Source: Candidatus Saccharimonadota bacterium
GTDB taxonomy: Bacteria > Patescibacteriota > Saccharimonadia > Saccharimonadales > JAQGHD01
Assembly: GCA_028288965.1 (NCBI GenBank)
Contig: JAQGHD010000023.1
Span: forward strand, 7,249 to 71,248
Reading direction: 5' to 3'
Length of the DNA stretch: 64,000 nt
Positions 3,001-56,973 of the stretch are shown piece after piece. The position numbers and the translations under genes are program-made. Positions within the stretch are counted from its first letter, which is position 1, and each line of letters starts with the position of its first letter. The notes under the pieces were generated by a model, which worked only from the letters and a program-made list of their open reading frames with translations, ran no database searches and was not told the origin of the DNA.

Positions 3001-3068
3001 GGGCTGGCAATAGCTAGACGCACAGCGTCAAAGTCGGCAATATCAGTTCCGTAAGCGTAGCGTCTCAT
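1..3068 (-). CDS. rpoC: DNA-directed RNA polymerase subunit beta-prime (partial; 3' end lies beyond window start)
   Basis: Missing from the ORF track because it runs off the window edge. My reverse-complement translation from ATG 3068-3066 reads MRRYAYGTDIADFDAVRLAIASPEDILDWSYGEVTKPETINYRT. The same frame encodes GKRVDYSGRSVIV, the catalytic NADFDGDQM (nt 1491-1517) and AAQSIGEPGTQLT. It is still open at nt 3 (..DHYVVQVTANDKEKVTL). The ATG overlaps the rpoB TAA by 1 nt (TAATG). Confidence 0.95.
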   Translation of the reverse strand, partial: MRRYAYGTDIADFDAVRLAIASPEDILDWSYGEVTKPETINYRTQKPERDGLFCERIFGPVKDINPHDAKYKGVRSREAAVDKNGEIVTRSIVRRERMAHINLAVPVAHIWFLRGTPSAIGLVLGMTVKNLERVAYFASYIIKSVDADKRDKMLADKEAEFNAGKEAIKLRYEKQAKDDEKADVRALAEQQTKELEELTRDYELLKNQLEGLEKLHLISESEYRSLPDDVSDLVTVGMGGAALKDMLDEIDLQKLIDTLTHEAEESKGQRKKKIMKRLRLLESMHRAEIKPSSMCVTVLPVIPPDLRPMVQLTGGRFATSDLNDLYRRVINRNNRLKKLMELNAPEVIRRNEQRMLQEAVDALIDNNNARSGRAVAATGQRRRLKSLSDMLKGKQGRFRQNLLGKRVDYSGRSVIVAGPELKIFQCGLPKMMALELFKPFVIGELIEREQAHNIRSATRMIEMSEIAVWDALDEVIKGKYVLLNRAPSLHRLSIQAFQPVLIEGKAIQLHPLVCKGFNADFDGDQMAVHLPLSDKAQDEARDIMASNKNLLKPADGSPILHIEQDIVLGSYYLTYERPGLTEKPTTNFTAISEALMAYENGVIDLQSRVRLPFRGQVRETTLGRVLFNEIFPEDFEFQNEAMTKKRLQQVMADVYQQYGQERTAEIADDLKDIGFEYATKSGLSMGMGDFSDVKGLDAIIEKGEKRATDISEQFDQGFITEEERYRLTVENWQQVDTTVQTTLAEQFEKEDSSMSIAVVSGARGNIGQVKTAVGMFGITTDATGRAIELPIRSNYKKGLNPLEYFTATRGARKGMIDTALKTADSGYLTRRLVDVSQDVFTIDEDMVDPGFSIYRRDSEEIGVNYASRLEGRFAAESIGTHVKKGHLITGEISKAIDADSQLDGVKIMSALSCTSTRGVGRKSYGIDPATGKLVAERYPVGVIAAQSIGEPGTQLTLKTFHSGGVAGEDITTGLPRVEELFEVRAPKGQAFLADITGTITAGEEGDHYVVQVTANDKEKVTL

Positions 3069-6000
3069 TATTTAGTCTCCTGTTCTACTTGTTTGGTCTC
3101 GTCATCATCTGAAGCAACTGGGGCTCCAGTTGGTAATTGATCGTCAATTTCCATAATCTTAAATTCATCAACGATAGCATCCTCGCTGACGTCTACATCA
3201 GATGCTTGCGGAGCTGGCACTTCAACTTCGGCCTGGTGACTGGCTTCGTCCTTAATGTTTTCGGCCAGTACGGCTTCGGCATCAACAGCTATATGTTCGG
3301 TAATCAAGTCAACCTTAAGACCCAAGCCTTGCAGCTCTTTAACAAGTACGTTAAAGCTTTCTGGTACTTTTGGCCCAACAATTTCAGTCTTCTTAATGAT
3401 TGACTCGTAGGCTTTTGAACGGCCGTAAACGTCATCGGACTTAATGGTCAGCATTTCTTGCAAAGTATGGGCGGCGCCGTAAGCTTCCAGAGCCCAGACT
3501 TCCATTTCGCCAAAGCGCTGGCCACCGTTTTGAGCTTTTCCACCCAACGGTTGCTGGGTGACCATGGTGTATGGCCCAGTAGAACGAGCGTGAATTTTGT
3601 CGGCAATCATGTGATTGAGCTTAATCATGTACATGGAGCCAACGGTGGTTCGCTCCTTAAAGGCTTCGCCTGTGCGGCCATCAAATAACTGCTGTTTGCC
3701 GTCTTCTGGCAGACCAGCCTCTTTGAGCAACTCGGAAATTTTATCAATGCTGACGCCATCAAATGATGGTGAAGCAACTTTAATACCAAGTGTTTTAGCG
3801 GCCATACCAAGGTGTGTTTCAAATAACTGTCCAACGTTCATACGGCTGGGTACTCCGAGCGGGTTGAGAATAATATCAACTGGCTCTCCATCCGTCATGA
3901 AGGGCATGTCCTCTACCGGCAAGATTCGGGCAATAACACCCTTGTTTCCGTGACGTCCACCAAGCTTGTCACCAACGGCGATTTTACGCATTTGAGCCAC
4001 AAAAACTTGGATTTGCATGAGTACTCCAGCTTTGAGCTCGTGGCCGTTGGCGCGAGAAAAGACCTTTACGCCCACAACCTTACCATGCTTACCGTTACTC
4101 ATGCGCTGAGAGGTATCGCGGACTTCCTTGGCCTTCTCACCAAAGATAGCCCGAAGCAAACGTTCTTCGCTGGATAGTTCTTGCTCACCCTTGGGCGTAA
4201 TTTTACCTACTAGAATGTCACCAGGGTGTACTTCGGCGCCGATACGGACAATACCGTCATCATCAAGGTGGCGCAAAGCTTCTTCGGAAACATTAGGGAT
4301 ATCACGGGTAACGATTTCTGGGCCAAGTTTGGTTTCACGAACCTCCGTCATGTAATCAACAATGTGAATAGACGTTAAAGTGTCATCCTCTACTAGTCGG
4401 CGCGAAATAATGATGGCATCCTCAAAGTTGTAACCAGACCATGGCATAAAGGCCACGACCAAGTCACGTCCCAGGGCCAACTCACCACCTTCTATAGACA
4501 TGCCTTCGATAAGCGCGTCACCAGCTTTAACTTTGTCGCCAGTACTGACCACAACCTTTTGGTTGATACAGGTACCTTCGTTGCTCCGCATGAAGTGCTG
4601 GGGGTGATAGGTCTTAGTGACGCCCTTGTACTTGACAACAACTTCGTCCGCGGTGGACTTAGTGATCTCGCCGGCGTCTTCGGCAACCACAATCTGACCA
4701 GTGTTAATGGCGGCCGAGGCTTCTAGTCCGGTGCCAACAAGTGGCGCAGCTGGGCGAATGAGCGGCACAGCTTGCCGCTGTTGGTTACTACCCATGAGGC
4801 TTCGGTACACGTAGTTTTTCTCAATAAATGGAATCAAGCCGGCACTACTACCAATAATTTGCTTTCGACTGGCATCCATATGGGTCACGTCATTGGCATC
4901 AACTTCACCTGATTTTAGGTGACTGCGAGCTGAAACACGCTCGCTTACAAAGAAACCACTAGCATCAACTGCTTCACCGGCACTGGCGATGACAGCTGAT
5001 TCTTCTTCAGCCGCATCCAGGTATTCAACTTGACGAGTCACCACAGCTTTAATCGGCCAGGTAACTTGATTTTTGACGGTAGCTAGTTTTTTAGCTTCGG
5101 CTTCTGAAATTTTCTTGCCGGCTTTGACGATGACTTTACCTTTTTCGTCTTCTAAGTCAACGGCGGCGATGTAGCCGGCTGCATCTTTGGCGGTAACGGC
5201 GTTTTTGATCTTTATATAAGGAGTCTCTATAAAACCGTACTCATTAATACGGGCAAAGTTGGCGAGGTTAAGCACTAAACCAATGTTGGCACCTTCTGGT
5301 GTCTCCACAGCACAGATACGGCCATAGTGGGTAGCGTGCGCGTCACGTACTTCAAAGCCGGCACGTTCACGGCTTAGGCCACCGGGACCCATAGAACTCA
5401 AACGTCGCTTGTGAGCCAGTTCGCTCAAAGGGTTAATTTGATCCATAAATTGGCTAAGCTGGCTGCTGGCAAAGAATTCACGGACGGCAGCGACGACTGG
5501 ACGGGCGTTAATGAGCTGTCCAGGGGTAACGGTCTCGATCTCGCACATGCTCATGCGGTCCTTGGTATTACGTTCCATACGCAGCAGACCAATCCGGAAC
5601 TGACGCTGGACCAGCTCGCCAACGAGTTTGACGCGTCGGTTGGCCAAACTGTCGATATCGTCAGCTGGCTCTTGGCTGTTATTCATACGAATAATCTCGG
5701 CAATGATAGCCGTCAGATCCTCAAGTCGCATAACACGATTCTCGGCCGTGTTTGGCACATCAAGGTTTAGGCGTTTGTTGATCTTGTAACGACCAACGCG
5801 GCTAAAATCAAAACGCTTGAAGTTATAAAACATGTTTTCTAGCAAACTACGGGCGTTGTCGACGGTAGCTAGGTCACCGGGACGTAGCCGCCGGTAGACT
5901 TCGATTAAGGCGTCGTTTGTTCCCTTGGTAGGGTCTTTTTCGAGTGTAGCTTTCACGTAGTTGATCTCACCTTGATCAACGTGCTTAAAGGTCTCGTTCA

Positions 6001-6610
6001 TACTGGCCTCATTCATGCCTAGGGCTTTAAGCAAGGTGGTGATAGCAATTTTTCGCTTGCGGTCGATCTTTACGTAGATGGCGCCGTTACTAGCTGTCTC
6101 GAACTCCAACCAAGCGCCACGGCCAGGAATGACCTTGGCACCGTACAAATTGCGTGTGCTATGGGTATCGGCAGTAAAGAATACACCGGCTGAACGAATC
6201 AGTTGCGAAACAACCACGCGCTCAGCGCCATTAATAACAAACGTACCACGAGTAGTCATCCAAGGATAATCACCCAGGTATATTTCTTGCTCTTTAACTT
6301 CGCCAGTGACCTTATTGGTCAGCTCCACCGTAGCTTTTAGTGGTGCTTCAAAGCTGACATTGTTTTCCCGAGCCTCGGCTTCAGGCATTTTTGGGGCGTC
6401 AAAATGATAATCCTTGAACCGCAAGGACAGTTTAGTGCCGGTATAATCGTCTATCGGACTTAATTCAGCCAATAATTCACCCAAACCTTCATTAACAAAC
6501 CATTGAAATGATTTGTTTTGGTGATCGACAAGGTTTGGAAGATCAACGATGTCGGTATTCTTAGTGAAAAAAATTCGTTCTTTGGCCTTAACAGTAGTGC
6601 TTTTTGCCAT
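3068..6610 (-). CDS. rpoB: DNA-directed RNA polymerase subunit beta
   Basis: The 1184-aa ORF carries beta-subunit hallmarks: GPGGLSRERAGFEVRDAHATHYGRICAVETPEGANIGL, GRHGNKGVIARILP and QRFGEMEVWALEAYGAA. I set the start at ATG 6610 (MAKSTTVKAK). The GGGAGG at 6623-6628 directly abuts the upstream ATG at 6622, so it can only serve the downstream ATG. The ORF-track start 6622 remains possible. Confidence 0.95.
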   Translation of the reverse strand: MAKSTTVKAKERIFFTKNTDIVDLPNLVDHQNKSFQWFVNEGLGELLAELSPIDDYTGTKLSLRFKDYHFDAPKMPEAEARENNVSFEAPLKATVELTNKVTGEVKEQEIYLGDYPWMTTRGTFVINGAERVVVSQLIRSAGVFFTADTHSTRNLYGAKVIPGRGAWLEFETASNGAIYVKIDRKRKIAITTLLKALGMNEASMNETFKHVDQGEINYVKATLEKDPTKGTNDALIEVYRRLRPGDLATVDNARSLLENMFYNFKRFDFSRVGRYKINKRLNLDVPNTAENRVMRLEDLTAIIAEIIRMNNSQEPADDIDSLANRRVKLVGELVQRQFRIGLLRMERNTKDRMSMCEIETVTPGQLINARPVVAAVREFFASSQLSQFMDQINPLSELAHKRRLSSMGPGGLSRERAGFEVRDAHATHYGRICAVETPEGANIGLVLNLANFARINEYGFIETPYIKIKNAVTAKDAAGYIAAVDLEDEKGKVIVKAGKKISEAEAKKLATVKNQVTWPIKAVVTRQVEYLDAAEEESAVIASAGEAVDASGFFVSERVSARSHLKSGEVDANDVTHMDASRKQIIGSSAGLIPFIEKNYVYRSLMGSNQQRQAVPLIRPAAPLVGTGLEASAAINTGQIVVAEDAGEITKSTADEVVVKYKGVTKTYHPQHFMRSNEGTCINQKVVVSTGDKVKAGDALIEGMSIEGGELALGRDLVVAFMPWSGYNFEDAIIISRRLVEDDTLTSIHIVDYMTEVRETKLGPEIVTRDIPNVSEEALRHLDDDGIVRIGAEVHPGDILVGKITPKGEQELSSEERLLRAIFGEKAKEVRDTSQRMSNGKHGKVVGVKVFSRANGHELKAGVLMQIQVFVAQMRKIAVGDKLGGRHGNKGVIARILPVEDMPFMTDGEPVDIILNPLGVPSRMNVGQLFETHLGMAAKTLGIKVASPSFDGVSIDKISELLKEAGLPEDGKQQLFDGRTGEAFKERTTVGSMYMIKLNHMIADKIHARSTGPYTMVTQQPLGGKAQNGGQRFGEMEVWALEAYGAAHTLQEMLTIKSDDVYGRSKAYESIIKKTEIVGPKVPESFNVLVKELQGLGLKVDLITEHIAVDAEAVLAENIKDEASHQAEVEVPAPQASDVDVSEDAIVDEFKIMEIDDQLPTGAPVASDDDETKQVEQETK

Positions 6611-6769
6611 ACGCGTGCGCATCCTCCCAAATTAAAAAATAGCTAGTAATACTTTTACTGGTTTTATGTTTGTTAGGGTGTTGCCGGCGAAGAAAACTAA
6701 GAGGGAGGTTTTTGCCTGCAGATGTTTTAAGCCACAGTAATACCCAACTTACACTACTTCTTACTTACT

Positions 6770-6798
6770 ATTCTACAGATTAGTAGGAATTGAGTCAA
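6770..6798 (-). promoter_or_regulatory. Candidate sigma70-type promoter for rpoBC (TTGACT-N17-TAGAAT)
   Basis: On the minus strand, TTGACT lies at 6798-6793 and TAGAAT at 6775-6770, separated by an exact 17-nt spacer. The site is in the 240-nt clpP-rpoB gap and implies a leader of roughly 150 nt. Confidence 0.5.
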
Positions 6799-7497: not shown

Positions 7498-7523
7498 ATT
7501 TATACCTCTTTTGTAGTACTTCT

Positions 7524-7552
7524 ATGATATAAAATTAGCACTCAACAGTCAA
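7524..7552 (-). promoter_or_regulatory. Candidate clpP promoter (TTGACT-N17-TATCAT) overlapping CIRCE
   Basis: The minus strand reads TTGACT (7552-7547), a 17-nt spacer, then TATCAT (7529-7524). This lies 27 nt upstream of the clpP ATG. The -35 hexamer sits inside the CIRCE spacer. Confidence 0.55.
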
Positions 7553-7561
7553 GAGTGCTAA
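7535..7561 (-). promoter_or_regulatory. CIRCE element (HrcA operator-type inverted repeat) upstream of clpP
   Basis: The sequence TTAGCACTC-aacagtcaa-GAGTGCTAA is an exact match to the CIRCE consensus TTAGCACTC-N9-GAGTGCTAA. It lies 1 nt after the tig stop codon and 38 nt before the clpP ATG. Confidence 0.85.
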
Positions 7562-7562
7562 T

Positions 7563-8893: not shown

Positions 8894-10204
8894 CTACCTA
8901 TTTTTGCGATGATCTTTAATGATACTGACAATTCGTTCTAAGCTGTGTTTTTCTTCGGTCTGACCCTCTAGATTTTTGAGGACAAAACTTTCATTATTGA
9001 GCTCATTCTCGCCAATAAATATAGCGTAGTGCAGCCCTTTTTTGACCGCTGTTTTAATCTGCTTATCGATTTTGCTGTCGCCGATACCTACAGCCACCTT
9101 TAACCCCATTTCGCGAAGCTTTTTAATAGCCGGTTGAGCCTGGGCGTATATTTCTCCGATTATGACCACATAGACGTCAGTTTCGGAATACAGCTGGGGC
9201 ATTAGGTTGTGGGATTCTAGAAAGTTTTGCAGCGTGACATCACCCATGCCAAAGCCCACTGTCGGCACCGGCTCAACACCAAACAAGCTCACCAGACCGT
9301 CATAGCGGCCGCCACCAAACAGCGATCGATTATTTTCGGGGTGATTATCAAAGACTTCAAAAACGATGTCGGTGTAGTAATCAAAACCGCGCATGAGCGT
9401 AATATCAAACTCAACGTTGGTGATCCCACTATTAGTCAGCGCCGTAATCAACTTCCTCAACTCCTCAACTGAGGCATGCTGTTGAAGCTCGGCGGGGAGA
9501 TCTTCCAGTGTTTTAGACTGCAGCAACGCCTGAAACTTATCGCTCAGCCCACTTTCACGTTCTGATGGACTTAAAATCGCTTCGGCCTGGGCAATAAACT
9601 CGCCGGGTTCCATTTTGTGCATGCGATCAATCAGCTTACTTAACGTAAAGGCTTCTACCTCTGAGAGTTTGAGATAATCTTGCGTCATAGCGTCAACCAG
9701 CTGGCGACTATTCAGCTTGATAGTGTACATGTCACGCTTGGCCTTAAAGGTTTGCAATATATAATCTGCTACTTCAATAATTTCTTGCTCGGCGCCAAGG
9801 TCAGCCACGCCAAAAATATCCACGTTTAATTGCCAGTGCTCGCGCAAGCGTCCGCGCTGCGGCCGTTCATAACGCCATAAATTAGGGATACTGTACCACC
9901 GGAGTGGATAGGCTAAGTCTTGGCGTCGGGCAGCCACCATCCGCGAGACAGTTGGTGTCATTTCTGGACGAATGGCCACCTGGCGCTGACCACGATCGGT
10001 AAAAGTATAGGTCTGTTCATTAACAATCTCCTCACCAGTTTTGGCCTGATATAACTCCAGCGGTTCTAAAATGGGAGCGTCGTATTCTTCGTATCCATAT
10101 TTTTCGACAGCCTTACGCATAACGCCAAACAGATATTTCTGGAGTCGTTTATCTTCGGGGTAAAAATCGCGAGCACCTTTGTAGGGCTGAGTCGATAAAG
10201 CCAT
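8894..10204 (-). CDS. hisS: Histidine--tRNA ligase
   Basis: The 436-aa class II aaRS has typical HisRS motifs (YERPQRGRLREHWQLNVDIFG and FGGGRYDGL) and a C-terminal anticodon-binding domain. Confidence 0.92.
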   Translation of the reverse strand: MALSTQPYKGARDFYPEDKRLQKYLFGVMRKAVEKYGYEEYDAPILEPLELYQAKTGEEIVNEQTYTFTDRGQRQVAIRPEMTPTVSRMVAARRQDLAYPLRWYSIPNLWRYERPQRGRLREHWQLNVDIFGVADLGAEQEIIEVADYILQTFKAKRDMYTIKLNSRQLVDAMTQDYLKLSEVEAFTLSKLIDRMHKMEPGEFIAQAEAILSPSERESGLSDKFQALLQSKTLEDLPAELQQHASVEELRKLITALTNSGITNVEFDITLMRGFDYYTDIVFEVFDNHPENNRSLFGGGRYDGLVSLFGVEPVPTVGFGMGDVTLQNFLESHNLMPQLYSETDVYVVIIGEIYAQAQPAIKKLREMGLKVAVGIGDSKIDKQIKTAVKKGLHYAIFIGENELNNESFVLKNLEGQTEEKHSLERIVSIIKDHRKNR

Positions 10205-21403: not shown

Positions 21404-23893
21404 TTAGCTGACAGGTGTCTCTTCTTGAACATTCTGGTAGATTAGTTCATCTTCCCTGGCACTTACTTTCACCACATCACCCCGCTCGTAACCGTTTTCC
21501 AGTAGACCCAAGGCAATATGATCCTCTAGTGTGTCTTGAATCAGGCGACGCATGGGCCGTACCCCGTTATGTGAGTCATAGCCCTTGTCTAGTAAGTAAT
21601 GCTTAGCAGCTGGCGTGGCTTGCAAGCCCAAGCCCTTTTTTAGAAGTCGCTGACGCAGTTCATCCAGTTGCAGGTCCAAGATCCTTAGCACATCTTTTTG
21701 CGTCAAGGCACGGAAGACCACTACCTTATCTATACGGTTCAGCAGCTCCGGGCGCATCATTTTCTTAAGTTCATCCTGGACTTTGTCTCGGTTAATAGCG
21801 TGTAAGCTGTCCAGGTCTTTCAAATCCTTGGCGTCGGTGGCATGGAAGCCTAAGGACGCTTCTTTTTGGAGCTTTTCTGCTCCAATGTTGCTAGTCATGA
21901 TCACAATAGTGTTAGTGAAATCGATCTTACGGCCCTTAGCGTCGGTGAGCACGCCGTCTTCTAGGATCTGCAGGAGCATGTTAAAGACTTCTGGGTGTGC
22001 TTTCTCGATCTCATCAAATAGCACCAGGCTGTAGGGTTGCCGGCGGATTTTATCGGTCAGCTGCCCGCCGTCATCGTAACCGACATAGCCGGCTGGCGCA
22101 CCAACCAAGCGGGCCACAGTGTGACGCTCAGACAATTCACTCATATCAATCTTGACCAGTGCTTCATCGGAGCCAAAGAATTCACGGGCTAGAACCCGGG
22201 CCAGTTCAGTCTTGCCGACACCGGTCGGGCCAAGGAATATTAACGAACCGATTGGTCGTTTTTCACTACCAATTCCGGAGCGGTTACGGCGGATGGCCTT
22301 AGATACGGCACTGACTGCCTCGCTTTGGCCAATAACGTAACGGCCGAGGTTCTTTTCTAAGTTTACTAAGTACTTAGCCTCAGAACGGATAACTTTAGTG
22401 ACCGGCACACCGGTCATACGGGCCACAACTTCGGCAACGTGTTCGCTGGTTAGCACCAGACGCTTAGCACCCTTGCCGGCAGCCTGAAGGTCCTTGAGCT
22501 TGTCACTAATTTGACTAGCCCGAGTTTTGTAATGGGCGGCCCGCTCGTAATCCTCAGCCTCCGCAGCCTCTTCGCGGCGGGTATTAGCCAAGGCCAGTTC
22601 CTTCTGCAACTTACGCACGTCTGGCGAAGTTTTGCCTTTATCAACACGCAAGTAAGCAGCAGTTTCATCGAGTAAATCGATGGCTTTATCAGGCATGAAT
22701 CGGTCGTTGACGTAGCGCTTGGCTAGATCAACCGTGTCTTTTAGGACTTCGTCATTGACGCTGACGTTATGAAAATCTTCGTAGTGCTTACGTAAGCCTT
22801 TTAGAATGGCAAGGGTCTCTGGCACAGTAGTTTCGGGGACTTGAATAGGCTGGAAACGACGTTCTAGAGCAGCATCTTTCTCTATATGTTTAGTGTACTC
22901 AGCCGTTGTAGTGGCGCCAATGACTTGGATTTTGCCGCGTGCTAAAGCAGGCTTAAGAATATTACCAGCATCCATAGCACCTTCGGCAGCCCCGGCACCA
23001 ACAATCAGATGGAGCTCATCTATAAAGATAATAGTTTTATCATCATCTTCTAGCTCGGCCATGACTTTTTTAAGGCGCTCTTCGAACTCGCCTCGGTATT
23101 TTGTGCCAGCGATCATGCCAGCCAGGTCAAGCATGACAATACGCTTGTCTAATAAGCTATCAGGCACGTCTTCTGTGATGATGCGTTGAGCCAGTCCCTC
23201 TACGATGGCAGTCTTACCGACGCCCGGCTCACCAATAAGGACCGGATTGTTTTTGGTACGGCGGTTTAGGATGGTGATGACTCGCTTGATTTGCGCTTCT
23301 CGCCCCACCACTGGGTCTAGTTTATTCTCGCGAGCTTGGGCGGTTAGATCGGTACCAAAGAAATCAAGCGCTGTTTTGCGCTTCTTTTTGCTAGCACTAC
23401 GCTTAGTGGCGGTGTCGTTGTCGTCGTATTGTTGACGATTCAGGAACTGCTCCAGCTCAGTAGTCAGGTGATCGACGTCGACATTCATGTCACGCAGTAG
23501 CGTGGTGGCTCGGGCATTCTTCTGGTTCAAAATGCTATATAAGATGTGCTCGGTGCCACAGTAATCGTGACCAAAGTCTTGGGCAGTCTCATAGGCCATT
23601 CTAAGCGTTAGTTTGGCGGTTTCACTGAGGCCCTTAGCCCCTAGGTTTATGACCAACGTTTTAGGCGTTAGATTAAGCGCTAAACGCGCCCGATCAAGGG
23701 TCACCCCAATGCCTTCGAGCATTTTAGCGCCAATGCTACTGTCTTGAGCTAGCACCCCAAGCAGTAAATGTTCGGTGCCGACGTACGCACTGCCAAAGCT
23801 ACGAGCAATGGCATCAGCATGCTTCAGGCTTTGCAGAGCATTATCTGTTAAATGATTCAAAAATTCTTGGAATTCTGCTGAGTTAGGCATCAT
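21404..23893 (-). CDS. clpC: ATP-dependent Clp protease ATP-binding subunit ClpC-type (class I AAA+)
   Basis: The ORF has two Clp_N repeats ([10 protein letters not shown] and [10 protein letters not shown]) and two Walker A sites (GEPGVGKT and GPTGVGKT). Its short middle domain has a UVR-like segment ([18 protein letters not shown]), which marks it as ClpC-like rather than ClpB-like. The ORF track starts at TTG 23932. I prefer ATG 23893 or 23890 ([11 protein letters not shown]) on the basis of N-domain length and an upstream AAGGAAGGTGG. Confidence 0.9.
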
Positions 23894-23997: not shown

Positions 23998-24026
23998 ATA
24001 ATAAAAAATTAGCACTCACTAGTCAA
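23998..24026 (-). promoter_or_regulatory. Candidate clpC promoter (TTGACT-N17-TATTAT) overlapping CIRCE
   Basis: The minus strand reads TTGACT (24026-24021), a 17-nt spacer, then TATTAT (24003-23998). The architecture is the same as at clpP. Confidence 0.55.
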
Positions 24027-24035
24027 GAGTGCTAA
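24009..24035 (-). promoter_or_regulatory. CIRCE element (HrcA operator-type inverted repeat) upstream of clpC
   Basis: The sequence TTAGCACTC-actagtcaa-GAGTGCTAA is an exact CIRCE consensus. It lies in the 136-nt nusA-clpC gap. Confidence 0.85.
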
Positions 24036-24068: not shown

Positions 24069-25265
24069 TTACTCTGCAGGTTTGTCGTCGGTACCGTGCT
24101 CTTCAATGGCCTCAAGCAGGCTGTTTTCTAGTTCAGTCTTTTTCTTGAGCTTTTGGACCACTGGTTTGGCTTCGGCCTCAGGTTGTGACTGTTCTGGTTC
24201 AACGGCAGCTGGCACGGGAGCCTTTTCTGTCTCTGGCTTAATGTCAATGTCATAGCCTGTTAGCTTGCTAGCCAGACGGACATTCTGGCCGCTTTTGCCA
24301 ATAGCAATACTTAACTGATCTTCAGGCACAGTAACAATCGCCTTTTTGTTGGCTTGGTCTAAGGTTACCTGGCTGACTTTTGTGGGGCTTAAAGCATTAG
24401 TAATGAAGGGCTCTGAATTTTCGTCCCACACAATAATGTCAATTTTTTCTTGCTCGCCAATCTCGCTCATGACGGCGTTTACACGAGTTCCGTGACCACC
24501 AACAAAGGTACCAACCGGGTCAACACCCTGTACGGTACTGCTAACGGCAATTTTACTGCGTACGCCAGCTTCTCGGGCAATTTCTTTAATCTCCACAGCG
24601 CCGTTTTCCATTTCTGGCACCTCGGCCCTAAACAGCCACTCAATAAATTCAGTATTTCCGCGCGATACCACTAATTGTGGTCCACGAAAACCACGCTCTA
24701 CGTCCTTGAGAAAGACCTTGAGCCGTTGGCCTGGGTAGTAGCGCTCACCCTGAATTTGCTCGCTGGCTGGCATAATGCCCTGGGCTTTGCCAAGGTCAAT
24801 GCGCACAATCCGGCCCTCTACGCGAGCCACAATACCGTTAATGACAGTACCGATTTTATCCTCGTACTCCGCCATAACAATTTCTCGTTCGGCTTCGCGC
24901 AGCCGCTGCAAGATCACTTGTTTAGCGGTTTGTGCGGCTACTCGTCCAAATTTTTCTACTTTTTGCTCGATCTCCACCATGTCACCAACTTTGGCGTCGC
25001 TTTTGATCTTTTTAGCATCAGCCACGTTAATTTCAAAGTTTTCATCGCCAACTTCTTCTACCACTTCTTTTTCAATAAAGGCCGTAATGTCGCCAGTGTT
25101 GATATTCATAGTAATGCGTACTTCTTGCTCTCGATCGCCGTAATCACGGCGGTAGGCGGCCGCTAAGGCCTGTTCTACCACTTCTTGCACGGTATCTTCT
25201 GGGAGATTCTTTTCCTCGGCAATGGCTTTAAGCGCCAAGGCCAACTGTTTTACATCTAAGTCCAT
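24069..25265 (-). CDS. nusA: Transcription termination/antitermination factor NusA
   Basis: The 398-aa ORF has the NusA N-terminal domain, an S1 domain (GIVARVEGRIVRIDLGKAQGIMP) and two KH domains (IGKSGQNVRLASKLTG). The C-terminal tail is acidic and Pro-rich. Confidence 0.92.
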   Translation of the reverse strand: MDLDVKQLALALKAIAEEKNLPEDTVQEVVEQALAAAYRRDYGDREQEVRITMNINTGDITAFIEKEVVEEVGDENFEINVADAKKIKSDAKVGDMVEIEQKVEKFGRVAAQTAKQVILQRLREAEREIVMAEYEDKIGTVINGIVARVEGRIVRIDLGKAQGIMPASEQIQGERYYPGQRLKVFLKDVERGFRGPQLVVSRGNTEFIEWLFRAEVPEMENGAVEIKEIAREAGVRSKIAVSSTVQGVDPVGTFVGGHGTRVNAVMSEIGEQEKIDIIVWDENSEPFITNALSPTKVSQVTLDQANKKAIVTVPEDQLSIAIGKSGQNVRLASKLTGYDIDIKPETEKAPVPAAVEPEQSQPEAEAKPVVQKLKKKTELENSLLEAIEEHGTDDKPAE

Positions 25266-25346: not shown

Positions 25347-25375
25347 AGAATACTCTAGTACGGATTTGGTGTCAA
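25347..25375 (-). promoter_or_regulatory. Candidate nusA promoter (TTGACA-N17-TATTCT)
   Basis: On the minus strand, TTGACA lies at 25375-25370 and TATTCT at 25352-25347, with a 17-nt spacer. An AAAGGAAA Shine-Dalgarno precedes ATG 25265. Confidence 0.4.
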
Positions 25376-53492: not shown

Positions 53493-54404
53493 TCAGACCT
53501 GTGCCTTATCGTGCGCATTAAACATTTTGAGTTTGCTCTCTACTACTTCTTGAACAGCATCAATGACCTGGCCCATGAGCTTTACAACTGCGTACTCGGT
53601 CTTGTTGGCTGCCAGGACGTCTTCCAGTGTTTTGCGGTAAGCCAAACGCATATCTGAATTGATATTTATCTTGCTGACACCGATTTTAACGGCCTCAACA
53701 AAATAGTGGCCTGGGGTACCGCTGCCGCCGTGCAAGGAAATGTTGCAGTCGATAGCTTGGCGAATTTGCTTAAGCAGTTCAATGTCGAGTATTTTGGGAG
53801 TTGGGTAAGCGCCGTGGAGGTTACCAATGGCAGCCGCGTAAGTATCTATGCCAGTGGCCTCTACAAAAGCTTTAGCTCCCTCTGGCGTACTAAAGGTCTT
53901 TTTAACTTCGGCATAGTCAAATTTCTCGGTGTGCACATTACTACTACCCTGGAAATAGTGTGGTTCGGCCTCTACCAGAGCGCCCGTCAGTTTGGCGTAT
54001 TGGACCACTTCTTTGGTCAGCGAGATAATAGCTTCATCGCTGGCGTTATGATCGGCCTGGGACACATCTATATGAATAAATTCAAATCCCGCCTCAATAC
54101 CAGCTTTAGCGTCTTTTACAGATGGTGAGTGGTCAAGATTGATGTACATTTCAACCTGATATTTAGCCTTGTAGTTATCAACCATATCCCGGATGTTATC
54201 GAGTCCCATGGCGTCAACTTCACCTTGGCTGACTTCCACTAACACTGGAGCCTTCAATTTGGCGGCCGCACGGGCCACAGCAATCAACGTTTCTTGGTTG
54301 TCCAGGTTAAACGCCCCCAGGGCAAAATGCTCGCGACGGGCTCGGACAAACGCCCCGCGGGCCTTTTGGCAGTTTTCACGGACTTGACGTATGGTTAAAG
54401 GCAT
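53493..54404 (-). CDS. fba: Class II fructose-/tagatose-bisphosphate aldolase
   Basis: The 303-aa ORF contains ALGAFN, the LDHS zinc region, IHIDVS and LHGGSGTP, which are class II FBA family signatures. Confidence 0.88.
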   Translation of the reverse strand: MPLTIRQVRENCQKARGAFVRARREHFALGAFNLDNQETLIAVARAAAKLKAPVLVEVSQGEVDAMGLDNIRDMVDNYKAKYQVEMYINLDHSPSVKDAKAGIEAGFEFIHIDVSQADHNASDEAIISLTKEVVQYAKLTGALVEAEPHYFQGSSNVHTEKFDYAEVKKTFSTPEGAKAFVEATGIDTYAAAIGNLHGAYPTPKILDIELLKQIRQAIDCNISLHGGSGTPGHYFVEAVKIGVSKININSDMRLAYRKTLEDVLAANKTEYAVVKLMGQVIDAVQEVVESKLKMFNAHDKAQV

Positions 54405-54471: not shown

Positions 54472-55113
54472 ATGCTATCAAAACTAAAAAAAATTCACTT
54501 TGAGCGTCAGCAAATCAAGCTGGCGTTACTTTGGGCGGTACCAACGGGCCTGGAAGTCTTTGTTTACATTTTTGTTGCCATTGTAACAGTTACCGTCTGT
54601 AACCTCAGCTTCTTTAAACAGAGCCTGTTTATCCCAAATAACCTCAACCCTTATAACTCTACACTTGATTCCATTAACCAGCTTGTCCAAAAAATCTTTG
54701 GCGAGCGTATTGCCGGTTCCTTGAGCCTGGGTATTTTCTGGGGACTGGTCGGTATGATTGTTTACGTCATTATTTGGCTGCTGCAAAACTTTTCTACCGA
54801 ACTTAATAACGATTTAGCCATGACCAAGTATATTGTGCCGCGCGGCGGTGATCCGGAATCGCCAATTAGAAGTTTTTTGTCACTGAGTTTGTTCCGTTTC
54901 ATGATACTGCTCTTGTTTATTTTTTACGTAAACCTTGTTTTTAGGGCGCTGCTACCCCGTTGGTTACAGCACTACCAAGGTCTGACGCACAATTGGCCAC
55001 ATAGCCGATATATGTGGGGCGCAGTATTTAGCATGATAGGGCAAATCATTACCCTGCATGGCTTTGTGGTCTTTACGCGACTCTTATTCCTACGAAAACG
55101 AATCTTTGGCTAG
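54472..55113 (+). CDS. Polytopic membrane protein of unknown function
   Basis: The 213-aa ORF has four or more hydrophobic helices (for example LALLWAVPTGLEVFVYIFVAIVTV, GIFWGLVGMIVYVIIWLL and FMILLLFIFYVNLVF). Confidence 0.6.
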   Translation: MLSKLKKIHFERQQIKLALLWAVPTGLEVFVYIFVAIVTVTVCNLSFFKQSLFIPNNLNPYNSTLDSINQLVQKIFGERIAGSLSLGIFWGLVGMIVYVIIWLLQNFSTELNNDLAMTKYIVPRGGDPESPIRSFLSLSLFRFMILLLFIFYVNLVFRALLPRWLQHYQGLTHNWPHSRYMWGAVFSMIGQIITLHGFVVFTRLLFLRKRIFG

Positions 55114-56084
55114 GCTTTTTTTACGAGATCGTGGGCGGCAATCATAATGTGCTTGGCAGTCAGGCCAAAGTGCTCGAGTAACTCAGCTGGTTCACCAGAT
55201 TCCCCAAACCTGTCTCGCATGCCCAAACGCTTAATTGGCACCGGAAATTCTTCGCCTAAAAGTTCCGCGACTGCTCCTCCAAGCCCACCGTTAATCTGGG
55301 CCTCTTCTATTGTCAAAACGTGTTTGGTCTTGTGAACGCTTTTTAAAATAGTTACGCCGTCTAGCGGCTTAATTGTTGGGACATGGACCACCTCAGCATC
55401 AATACCGGTGCTAAATAGGCGCTCGGCAGCAATCAAGGCGTGATAGGTCATAGTCCCGGTGCTAATAATGGTGAGGTCCGTGCCTTCGGCATAGACATAG
55501 GCCTTACCGATTTCAAACGGCGTGTCTTTAGTGGTTAGAATAGGCGTGGCTTCGCGGGCTACCCGTAAATAGTTTGGCCGCTTGTCTATGGCCATAGCCA
55601 GCGTGGCTTTCTCGGACTCTAGACTATCTCCCGGCACAATCACCACCATATTTGGCAGCACCCGCATCAGCGCAATATCCTCGAGCATTTGGTGGGTAGC
55701 GCCATCGGCACCAGTGTATAAACCAGCGTGCGAACCAATAATCTTTACTGGCCGATCATTTAAACAAATAGTGGTCCTGATCTGCTCCCAGTTACGACCC
55801 GGACTAAAAGCTGCGTAGGACGATACAAATGGAATTTTACCTTGAGCAGCTAACCCGGAGCCAACCGTCACTAAGTTTTGCTCAGCAACGCCTACTTGCA
55901 CAAACCGCTCCGGAAAGGCATCGGCAAACATATTAATTTGGGTAGAACTAGTCAGATCGGCACAGAGCGCTACGACTCGTTCGTCTCGACGACCGGCTTC
56001 CAGTAGCCCCCGTCCAAAACCTTTTCTAATGGGGTCATAGTCGGGTTTGTGGTAAATATTGGTGGCCAGGTGTAAATCACTCAT
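55110..56084 (-). CDS. Transketolase, C-terminal (pyrimidine-binding + C-terminal domain) subunit
   Basis: From ATG 56084 the protein reads MSDLHLATNIYHKPDYDPIRKGFGRGL, followed by CADLTSST, FVQVGVAEQNLV and GADGATHQMLEDIA. The ORF-track extension to 56252 lies inside the upstream subunit gene and is rejected. Confidence 0.9.
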   Translation of the reverse strand: MSDLHLATNIYHKPDYDPIRKGFGRGLLEAGRRDERVVALCADLTSSTQINMFADAFPERFVQVGVAEQNLVTVGSGLAAQGKIPFVSSYAAFSPGRNWEQIRTTICLNDRPVKIIGSHAGLYTGADGATHQMLEDIALMRVLPNMVVIVPGDSLESEKATLAMAIDKRPNYLRVAREATPILTTKDTPFEIGKAYVYAEGTDLTIISTGTMTYHALIAAERLFSTGIDAEVVHVPTIKPLDGVTILKSVHKTKHVLTIEEAQINGGLGGAVAELLGEEFPVPIKRLGMRDRFGESGEPAELLEHFGLTAKHIMIAAHDLVKKA

Positions 56085-56973
56085 GCTCGCTCCTAATTTT
56101 GCCGCGCAAAGTGCGAAGTTCGTGCAAAGCAACCTTGGCTTGCTCGTTTTTAGGTGGTGCACCGCCAACGTCTTGGGCACCCACAGGAATGCCGTGCCAA
56201 TGATAGTCATACTCCATAAAATCCACACCCTTACCCGGCACGGTATGGGCAATAATAGCTACTGGTTTTTCAACAATGGCCCGAGCCATGGCACAGGCGT
56301 CTATGACGGCCTCCATGTCATTCCCGTCAATCTCTATAACGTGCCAGCCAAAGGCTTCCCACTTGGCTGTTAGGTCTTCTAGCGGCATAACGTGCTCGGT
56401 AGTACCATCTATTTGAATGTTATTACGGTCAATGATAGCTATCAGGTTATTGAGCTTATACTTAGCGATCAGCATAGCTGCTTCCCAGATATTACCTTCA
56501 TCTAATTCCCCATCACCGGTGGTTACGTACACCCAGCGATGGTTGTCATGATTCATTTTCATCGACAGTGCCATACCAGCCGCTTGGCTGAGTCCACTGC
56601 CTAAGGGCCCGCTCGTTGTTTCTAGCCCCGGCAAAAGTTTACGCTCGGGGTGTCCTTGCAGCCGCGAGCCAAATTTCCGCAAGGTTTTGAGCTCTTTTTT
56701 ATCGAAATAGCCGGCATTAGCCAAGGTAGCGTAGACCACCGGAGCAACGTGCCCGTTACTAACCACCAAAATATCGCGCTGATCCCAATTGGGCTTTAAT
56801 GGATCGTGTTTTAATACATCAAAATAGAGTGCCGTGAAAATATCTGCTAGATCGAGCGGGCCAGCACTATGGCCGCTGCCGGCTTCGAGCAACATTTTAA
56901 TAATGTCTTGCCGAATAGTGTTGGCAATTAACTCAAGCTCCGCCGTTGTATATGACTTTTTGTTGTTTGTCAT
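56077..56973 (-). CDS. Transketolase, N-terminal (thiamine-diphosphate-binding) subunit
   Basis: The 298-aa ORF contains GSGHSAGPLDLADIF, SNGHVAPVVYA and the TPP motif GDGELDEGNIWEA. Its TGA stop at 56077-56079 overlaps the next subunit's ATG by 8 nt. Confidence 0.9.
   Translation of the reverse strand: MTNNKKSYTTAELELIANTIRQDIIKMLLEAGSGHSAGPLDLADIFTALYFDVLKHDPLKPNWDQRDILVVSNGHVAPVVYATLANAGYFDKKELKTLRKFGSRLQGHPERKLLPGLETTSGPLGSGLSQAAGMALSMKMNHDNHRWVYVTTGDGELDEGNIWEAAMLIAKYKLNNLIAIIDRNNIQIDGTTEHVMPLEDLTAKWEAFGWHVIEIDGNDMEAVIDACAMARAIVEKPVAIIAHTVPGKGVDFMEYDYHWHGIPVGAQDVGGAPPKNEQAKVALHELRTLRGKIRSEHE

Follow-up and report, generated by a model that had tools for sequence, protein, structure and literature searches.

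A putative HrcA operator (CIRCE) built into the clpP promoter and conserved across the Saccharibacteria

The window analyzed here, a 64-kb stretch of DNA from a Saccharibacteria genome, encodes trigger factor (tig) and ClpP in succession on the minus strand, with hisS as the neighbor of tig and rpoB as the neighbor of clpP (Table 1). The placement of rpoB directly after clpP is an unusual gene neighborhood. The 65 nt that separate tig from clpP are taken up wholly by an operator, a promoter (also on the minus strand), and a ribosome-binding site. Read along that strand, the tig stop codon (TAA, 7565-7563) is followed by one A (7562) and then by TTAGCACTCAACAGTCAAGAGTGCTAA (7561-7535), which conforms to the CIRCE consensus, TTAGCACTC-N9-GAGTGCTAA, with 0 mismatches (18/18). 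The element reads in full TTAGCACTC-AACAGTCAA-GAGTGCTAA, its spacer being AACAGTCAA, and it begins 1 nt past the tig stop, leaving 37 nt between its end and the clpP ATG. The hexamer TTGACT (7552-7547) lies within the spacer and is followed after 17 nt by TATCAT (7529-7524), a pair that scored 10/12 in a promoter scan; downstream of TATCAT are GAGG (7508-7505) and the clpP ATG (7497). Transcription of clpP is predicted to start near 7517, which would leave a leader of ~20 nt. A preliminary description of this locus had claimed a mismatch-free CIRCE, a TTGACT in its 9-nt spacer located 17 nt from TATCAT, and a position 1 nt after the tig stop, and each of these claims holds. When up to three mismatches were allowed, two CIRCE matches were detected in the 64-kb window; both are perfect, whereas shuffled sequences gave an expectation of 0.01.

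Table 1. Genes and regulatory features of the window that bear on the clpP and clpC operators.
Feature	Position	Strand	Evidence or remarks
rpoB	3068-6622	-	neighbor of clpP
clpP, 210 aa	6865-7497	-	NF001368, 287.5 bits (cut-off 249); Pfam CLP_protease, E = 2.8e-76
Shine-Dalgarno AAAGAGG	7505-7511	-	7 nt before clpP ATG; direct sequence reading
-10 hexamer TATCAT	7524-7529	-	17 nt after -35; 10/12 promoter match
CIRCE operator 1	7535-7561	-	18/18 consensus match; upstream of clpP
-35 hexamer TTGACT	7547-7552	-	spacer positions 1-6 of CIRCE operator 1
tig (trigger factor), 426 aa	7563-8843	-	TIGR00115, 340 bits (cut-off 180), E = 2e-101
hisS	8894-10204	-	neighbor of tig
clpC, 829 aa from ATG 23893	21404-23893	-	full-length single-stretch match to S. 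aureus ClpC 6em8, E = 4.8e-231
clpC promoter	23998-24026	-	TTGACT 24026-24021, 17 nt, TATTAT 24003-23998; 10/12 promoter match
CIRCE operator 2	24009-24035	-	18/18 consensus match; 33 nt past nusA stop, upstream of clpC
nusA	24069-25265	-	TIGR01953, E = 1.2e-114; upstream neighbor of CIRCE operator 2

The second perfect CIRCE (18/18, 24009-24035) lies upstream of a gene for a ClpC-type ATPase and has the same geometry as that at clpP. The product of this gene aligns end to end with ClpC of Staphylococcus aureus, Bacillus subtilis, and Mycobacterium tuberculosis, and its LGF tripeptide, a ClpP-docking motif, aligns to the AGF of the ClpC loop. An identity as ClpB was considered and rejected, as ClpB matches this protein only in two pieces whereas ClpC matches it end to end. 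The start listed for this open reading frame (TTG, 23932) is probably not the real one; the ATG at 23893 is preferred because the N-termini of relatives match there and because it is preceded by a GGTGG Shine-Dalgarno sequence. This start would leave a leader of ~100 nt from the predicted transcription start. The order nusA-CIRCE-clpC recurs in the loci of relatives, and the ClpC and NusA proteins of the window are 79-80% identical to those of Saccharimonadales MAGs, which places the window in that order. The location of the second element before clpC means that both halves of the ClpCP protease carry a CIRCE. Strong consensus promoters were also identified before rpoB (TTGACT-17-TAGAAT, 6770-6798) and before nusA (TTGACA-17-TATTCT, 25347-25375), which indicates that this organism uses canonical -35 hexamers. 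Elsewhere in the window, transketolase is encoded by two slightly overlapping minus-strand open reading frames, one for the N-terminal half (56077-56973) and one for the C-terminal half (55110-56252).

To evaluate conservation in an unbiased sample, we compiled 80 metagenomic loci that were selected by similarity to the ClpP of the window alone (72-86% identity). A CIRCE with up to three mismatches was present directly upstream of clpP in all 78 of the loci with usable upstream DNA. In a stricter recount, which considered the fetched Patescibacteria loci and accepted a CIRCE only within 300 nt upstream of a gene, the element preceded clpP in 77/77 cases (metagenome set), clpC in 40/40, hrcA in 17/17, dnaK in 14/24, and dnaJ in 9/14, while tig, which served as the negative control, was preceded by a CIRCE in 0/62. 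The presence of the element in orthologous clpP upstream regions, on which the preliminary description had made its claim depend, is thus borne out. The companion question of whether groES and dnaK also carry sites received a divided answer: dnaK does, and neither groES nor groEL was found in any fetched Patescibacteria locus (within L001-L198), or after a CIRCE there, the genome matches being those listed by a scan for one spacer form. Matches to groES and groEL among the fetched loci were confined to Clostridia and a cyanobacterium.

A collection of genomes, with one genome per species, was then scanned for CIRCE elements with TTGACT in the spacer, and this returned at least 118 loci with 120 sites. 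Among the at least 118 matches listed, about three quarters were from Saccharibacteria/Saccharimonadales, with the remainder from other Patescibacteria, Clostridia, cyanobacteria, and others. With TTGACT taken to set the orientation, the first genes after the 120 sites listed comprised at least 41 of the ClpC family, at least 24 clpP, at least 16 of a family of ~236-aa proteins, at least nine dnaK, and at least two dnaJ; single cases of Hsp20 and of Lon were also located downstream among these sites. One further candidate element, an everted palindrome in which the right arm is joined directly to the left arm (GAGTGCTAGCACTT; L101, 4195-4208), was dropped, as it did not recur in the window or across 1.2 Mb of fetched sequence. 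In L101 it is situated 54 nt beyond the point at which the dnaK CIRCE begins, and a degenerate copy is present in L100.

The relationship between the spacer hexamer and the -10 hexamer was evaluated across these sites. Among the matches listed, a -10-like hexamer follows the spacer TTGACT at a distance of 16-20 nt in 97/97 Patescibacteria sites, and the spacing among these 97 sites is 17 nt in 49, 18 nt in 33, and 16 nt in 10. Conversely, a -10 hexamer at 16-20 nt was identified at only 5 of the 22 sites with TTGACT in the spacer that were listed from other phyla. The possibility that Clostridia, cyanobacteria, and other taxa share the same design was accordingly set aside, since a -10 at promoter distance is lacking in 17 of the 22 and the resemblance is coincidental. 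The CIRCE elements with TTGACT in the spacer outside of the Patescibacteria precede groES, groEL, htpG, clpB, and hrcA (in 11 loci and others). Seventeen further CIRCE elements in the same loci, which had not been selected by the pattern, were also inspected, and the spacer begins with TTGnnn in 16 of them.

Comparison of clpP orthologs revealed that the -35 hexamer occurs in two registers, either as TTGACnnnn (spacer positions 1-5) or as nnnnTTGAC (spacer positions 5-9); in the second register, the hexamer TTGACG is completed by the G of the right arm. For a -35 that begins at spacer position 1, the distance from the arm to the start of the -10 is 6-7 nt in 28/31 sequences, and for one that begins at spacer position 5 it is 10-11 nt in 31/36. 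The -10 thus shifts by 4 nt with the -35, and a spacing of 17-18 nt is held in 60 of 68 distinct orthologous sequences across both registers. This covariation is the strongest argument that the spacer hexamer is used by RNA polymerase, and such use would mean that a repressor bound to CIRCE must compete with it.

The repressor itself was sought in the window and among relatives. None of hrcA, dnaK, dnaJ, hsp20, lon, groES, or groEL was detected in the 64-kb window by tblastn (with 16 short HrcA proteins as the HrcA queries), and NCBIfam scans of 20 window open reading frames returned no match to HrcA. In the lineage, by contrast, hrcA is found and is itself preceded by CIRCE, such that the gene is autoregulated in relatives, and on this basis it is presumed to be present in this exact genome. 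The proteins of ~236 aa encoded after CIRCE, as the first open reading frame in 16 loci, are a shortened HrcA that retains the Pfam HrcA DNA-binding winged helix along with the distal portion of the C-terminal domain. They match TIGR00331 in two stretches (E = 1.3e-52; 179.5 bits, under the cut-off of 197.2), and their N-terminus aligns well with residues 16-95 of the Thermotoga maritima HrcA (1stz). HrcA in Saccharibacteria and other Patescibacteria is 225-267 aa long versus ~340 aa normally, and so is ~100 residues shorter; what it lacks corresponds to approximately the first 80-105 positions of Pfam PF01628. Dimerization and regulation of this short HrcA may differ from the standard. CIRCE-hrcA and CIRCE-clpC are neighbors on the same contig in two loci (L018 and L033), and in six other loci hrcA adjoins dnaK and dnaJ, which are each under separate CIRCE control.

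Collectively, these observations make it very probable that the element upstream of clpP in this Saccharibacteria genome is a functional HrcA operator fused to a sigma-70-type promoter. The preliminary description had advanced the same reading, which is supported by the 78/78 clpP loci, by the covariation of the -10 and -35 hexamers, and by the occurrence of CIRCE-preceded hrcA in the lineage. In the proposed mechanism, the two HrcA half-sites would flank a 9-nt spacer that supplies the -35, with the -10 located 17 nt on; counted from the predicted start site, the operator would thus cover about -44 to -18. In unstressed cells, a dimer of HrcA bound to CIRCE would deny sigma region 4 and RNA polymerase access to the -35. 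Heat or a load of unfolded protein would inactivate HrcA, freeing a strong promoter and inducing clpP. The same device would drive clpC in the window and, in relatives, also hrcA, dnaK, dnaJ, and in some cases hsp20. As judged from comparison of sequences, this design strongly indicates a genuine promoter, one that would be blocked by a bound repressor, and in this lineage of reduced genomes a single regulator, HrcA, appears to govern the chaperones as well as the ClpCP protease.

The preliminary description had also proposed a second function, whereby the CIRCE hairpin and the UUUUAU that follows it would serve as an intrinsic terminator of tig; by the same logic, the second site would terminate nusA. 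The RNA of both sites can indeed form a stem of 10-12 bp with a 9-nt loop (-12.9 to -15.1 kcal/mol, z = -3.2 to -4.4), the tails after the stem are UUUUAUAU at the first site and UUUUUUAU at the second, and no other terminator-like site was identified between tig and clpP. However, the terminator scan did not flag the first element, the 9-nt loop of which falls outside the limits of the scan, and the T-run is at the same time just the AT-rich spacer of the promoter. Comparison of relatives argues further against selection on a hairpin. Positions 4-9 of the arms are essentially invariant, the 68 distinct sites showing a single change there, at position 7. Other substitutions fall at positions 1 and 3, in the outer part of the arm, and mostly lack compensation: 5 preserve a Watson-Crick pair whereas 28 result in G.T pairs and 26 in mismatches (5/59 compensated). 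The rarity of compensated changes suggests that selection acts on two protein half-sites rather than on a stem. In addition, the 8 nt after the arm contain an average of only 4 T across relatives, and T content is the same whether tig abuts the element or is distant (4.0 versus 4.2, p = 0.63). Weak termination by this element is possible in this particular genome, while termination as a conserved function is not supported, and the proposed role at tig thus finds no comparative backing. Overall, we consider dual use of the element unlikely.

A further alternative is that clpP is expressed mainly by read-through from the tig promoter, with HrcA bound at CIRCE acting as a roadblock that gates transcription between the two genes rather than occluding a promoter dedicated to clpP. 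The arrangement in the window, where CIRCE starts 1 nt past the tig stop, is compatible with this scenario, as are the 15 of 65 related loci in which the element touches or overlaps the end of tig (-3 to +5 nt from the stop); moreover, lon of Mycoplasma pneumoniae is described as being under the tig promoter together with a CIRCE upstream of lon (PMC7737663). Yet the distance from the tig stop to CIRCE in relatives ranges from -3 to ~2000 nt, which indicates that CIRCE goes with clpP and not with tig, and the element stays with clpP where tig ends up to ~2 kb away. The CIRCE-promoter unit is also located before clpC, hrcA, and dnaK, behind unrelated upstream genes. Finally, a conserved -35/-10 pair at 17-18 nt, with a -10 that shifts by 4 nt with the register, is left unexplained by read-through unless the pair is a promoter. 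Roadblock and promoter occlusion are not mutually exclusive modes; as the main mode of clpP control, however, read-through with a roadblock is rather improbable.

It is also conceivable that a regulator other than HrcA binds the site, such as a CtsR-like or lineage-specific repressor that uses the CIRCE sequence, and the atypically short HrcA of the lineage and the absence of hrcA from the window could be taken to point in that direction. Against this, the arms match the HrcA consensus at 18/18 positions, and the short HrcA retains the winged helix and is encoded by genes that are preceded by CIRCE in 17/17 cases. Likewise, the CtsR tandem heptad (RGTCADN-NAN-RGTCADN) was not found near clpP or clpC in the window, the whole of which contains a single match with one mismatch, at 54219 inside a gene, as expected by chance. 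Recognition by another regulator is therefore very unlikely, and CIRCE appears, from the sequence of the region, to be the sole operator at clpP here. The remaining reading, that the element is a chance palindrome or a generic intergenic repeat without a regulatory role, is effectively refuted by two perfect sites where shuffles predict 0.01, by its confinement to positions before proteostasis genes (0/62 for tig), and by its retention in 78/78 clpP loci at 72-86% protein identity.

A functional HrcA operator at the clpP promoter can be compared with heat-shock control in better known taxa. The core targets of CIRCE in the literature are groESL and dnaK, and the usual regulators of clp genes are sigma-32 or CtsR. 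In Streptococcus salivarius, however, clpP is reportedly under dual control by CtsR and HrcA, as described by Chastanet and Msadek in 2003. That case resembles the one proposed here in that clpP is subject to HrcA, and differs from it in that HrcA there acts jointly with CtsR whereas no CtsR box is found here; the promoter-embedded geometry and its phylum-wide conservation are specific to Saccharibacteria. With respect to B. subtilis, Zuber and Schumann are said to have placed the operator between the start site and the start codon in 1994, whereas here it overlaps the -35. The class I system of that organism (the dnaK and groE operons) shares with the Saccharibacteria the inverted repeat TTAGCACTC-N9-GAGTGCTAA and a regulator of the same HrcA winged-helix family, and hrcA is autoregulated in Saccharibacteria relatives; the HrcA of the latter lineage is ~100 residues shorter. 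A further difference is that clpP and clpC are among the targets here, while in B. subtilis they belong to the separate CtsR regulon (PMC6305308).

Further close parallels are with the HrcA regulon of Mollicutes, which likewise have reduced genomes and likewise place chaperones and ATP-dependent protease genes under HrcA and CIRCE. Sigma-B and CtsR have been lost in Mollicutes, and HrcA is relied on for control of chaperones and proteases (PMC12597100). In M. pneumoniae, lon is located behind tig with CIRCE between them, the same order of tig, CIRCE, and protease gene as in the window, and HrcA control covers chaperones together with Lon, PepA, and Pip (PMC7737663). In Mycoplasma feriruminatoris, CIRCE precedes clpB and lon, and in the lon promoter, for which the start site has been mapped, it is situated upstream of the Pribnow box (PMC12597100). 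HrcA control of protease genes and a CIRCE upstream of the -10 are thus already known in Mollicutes. To describe the element at a clp gene as unexpected, as was done in the preliminary description, is accordingly an overstatement: the core targets elsewhere are indeed groESL and dnaK, yet precedents exist at lon and clpB of Mollicutes and at clpP of S. salivarius. The two systems differ in the protease, which is Lon or ClpB in Mollicutes and ClpP with ClpC here, and in the operator, in that the Mollicutes arm consensus is TTAGCACTT/AAGTGCTAA with no consensus -35 reported in the spacer whereas a TTGAC -35 is present here in two registers. Two features are peculiar to the lineage, namely the consensus -35 in the spacer with its two registers and the shortened HrcA. 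Our literature search found no paper that connects either HrcA or CIRCE with the Saccharibacteria, the Patescibacteria, or the candidate phyla radiation, and HrcA/CIRCE control of clpP is apparently undescribed for this phylum. Transcriptome papers on TM7x report only that 'clpB' and clpP rise together, which is the one hint at stress-dependent derepression.

A broader proposal is that the short HrcA is the single regulator of proteostasis, acting through a -35 placed in the spacer in two registers on a regulon centered on ClpCP and DnaK, in Saccharibacteria and perhaps in the wider Patescibacteria. We put this forward tentatively, as a possibility that is at present more doubtful than probable. 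Since groESL was not among the targets found, it is possible that the activity of the repressor is set by something other than titration of GroE, for example by ClpCP or DnaK.

Saccharibacteria are ultrasmall, largely uncultivated epibionts for which almost no gene regulation has been characterized, and the present analysis provides them with a concrete stress regulon. The proposed regulon comprises hrcA, dnaK, dnaJ, clpC, clpP, and in some genomes hsp20, together with a defined promoter-operator module. The covariation between the two registers represents a natural experiment indicating that the spacer of CIRCE is free to encode promoter information. The unit of ~50 bp may be of use as a heat-inducible switch in the emerging genetics of Saccharibacteria, as the CIRCE promoter of Mycoplasma lon has been used (PMC12597100). 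More generally, the Saccharibacteria would constitute a case, independent of and alongside the Mollicutes, in which heat-shock control converges on HrcA through genome reduction, with protease genes pulled into its regulon.
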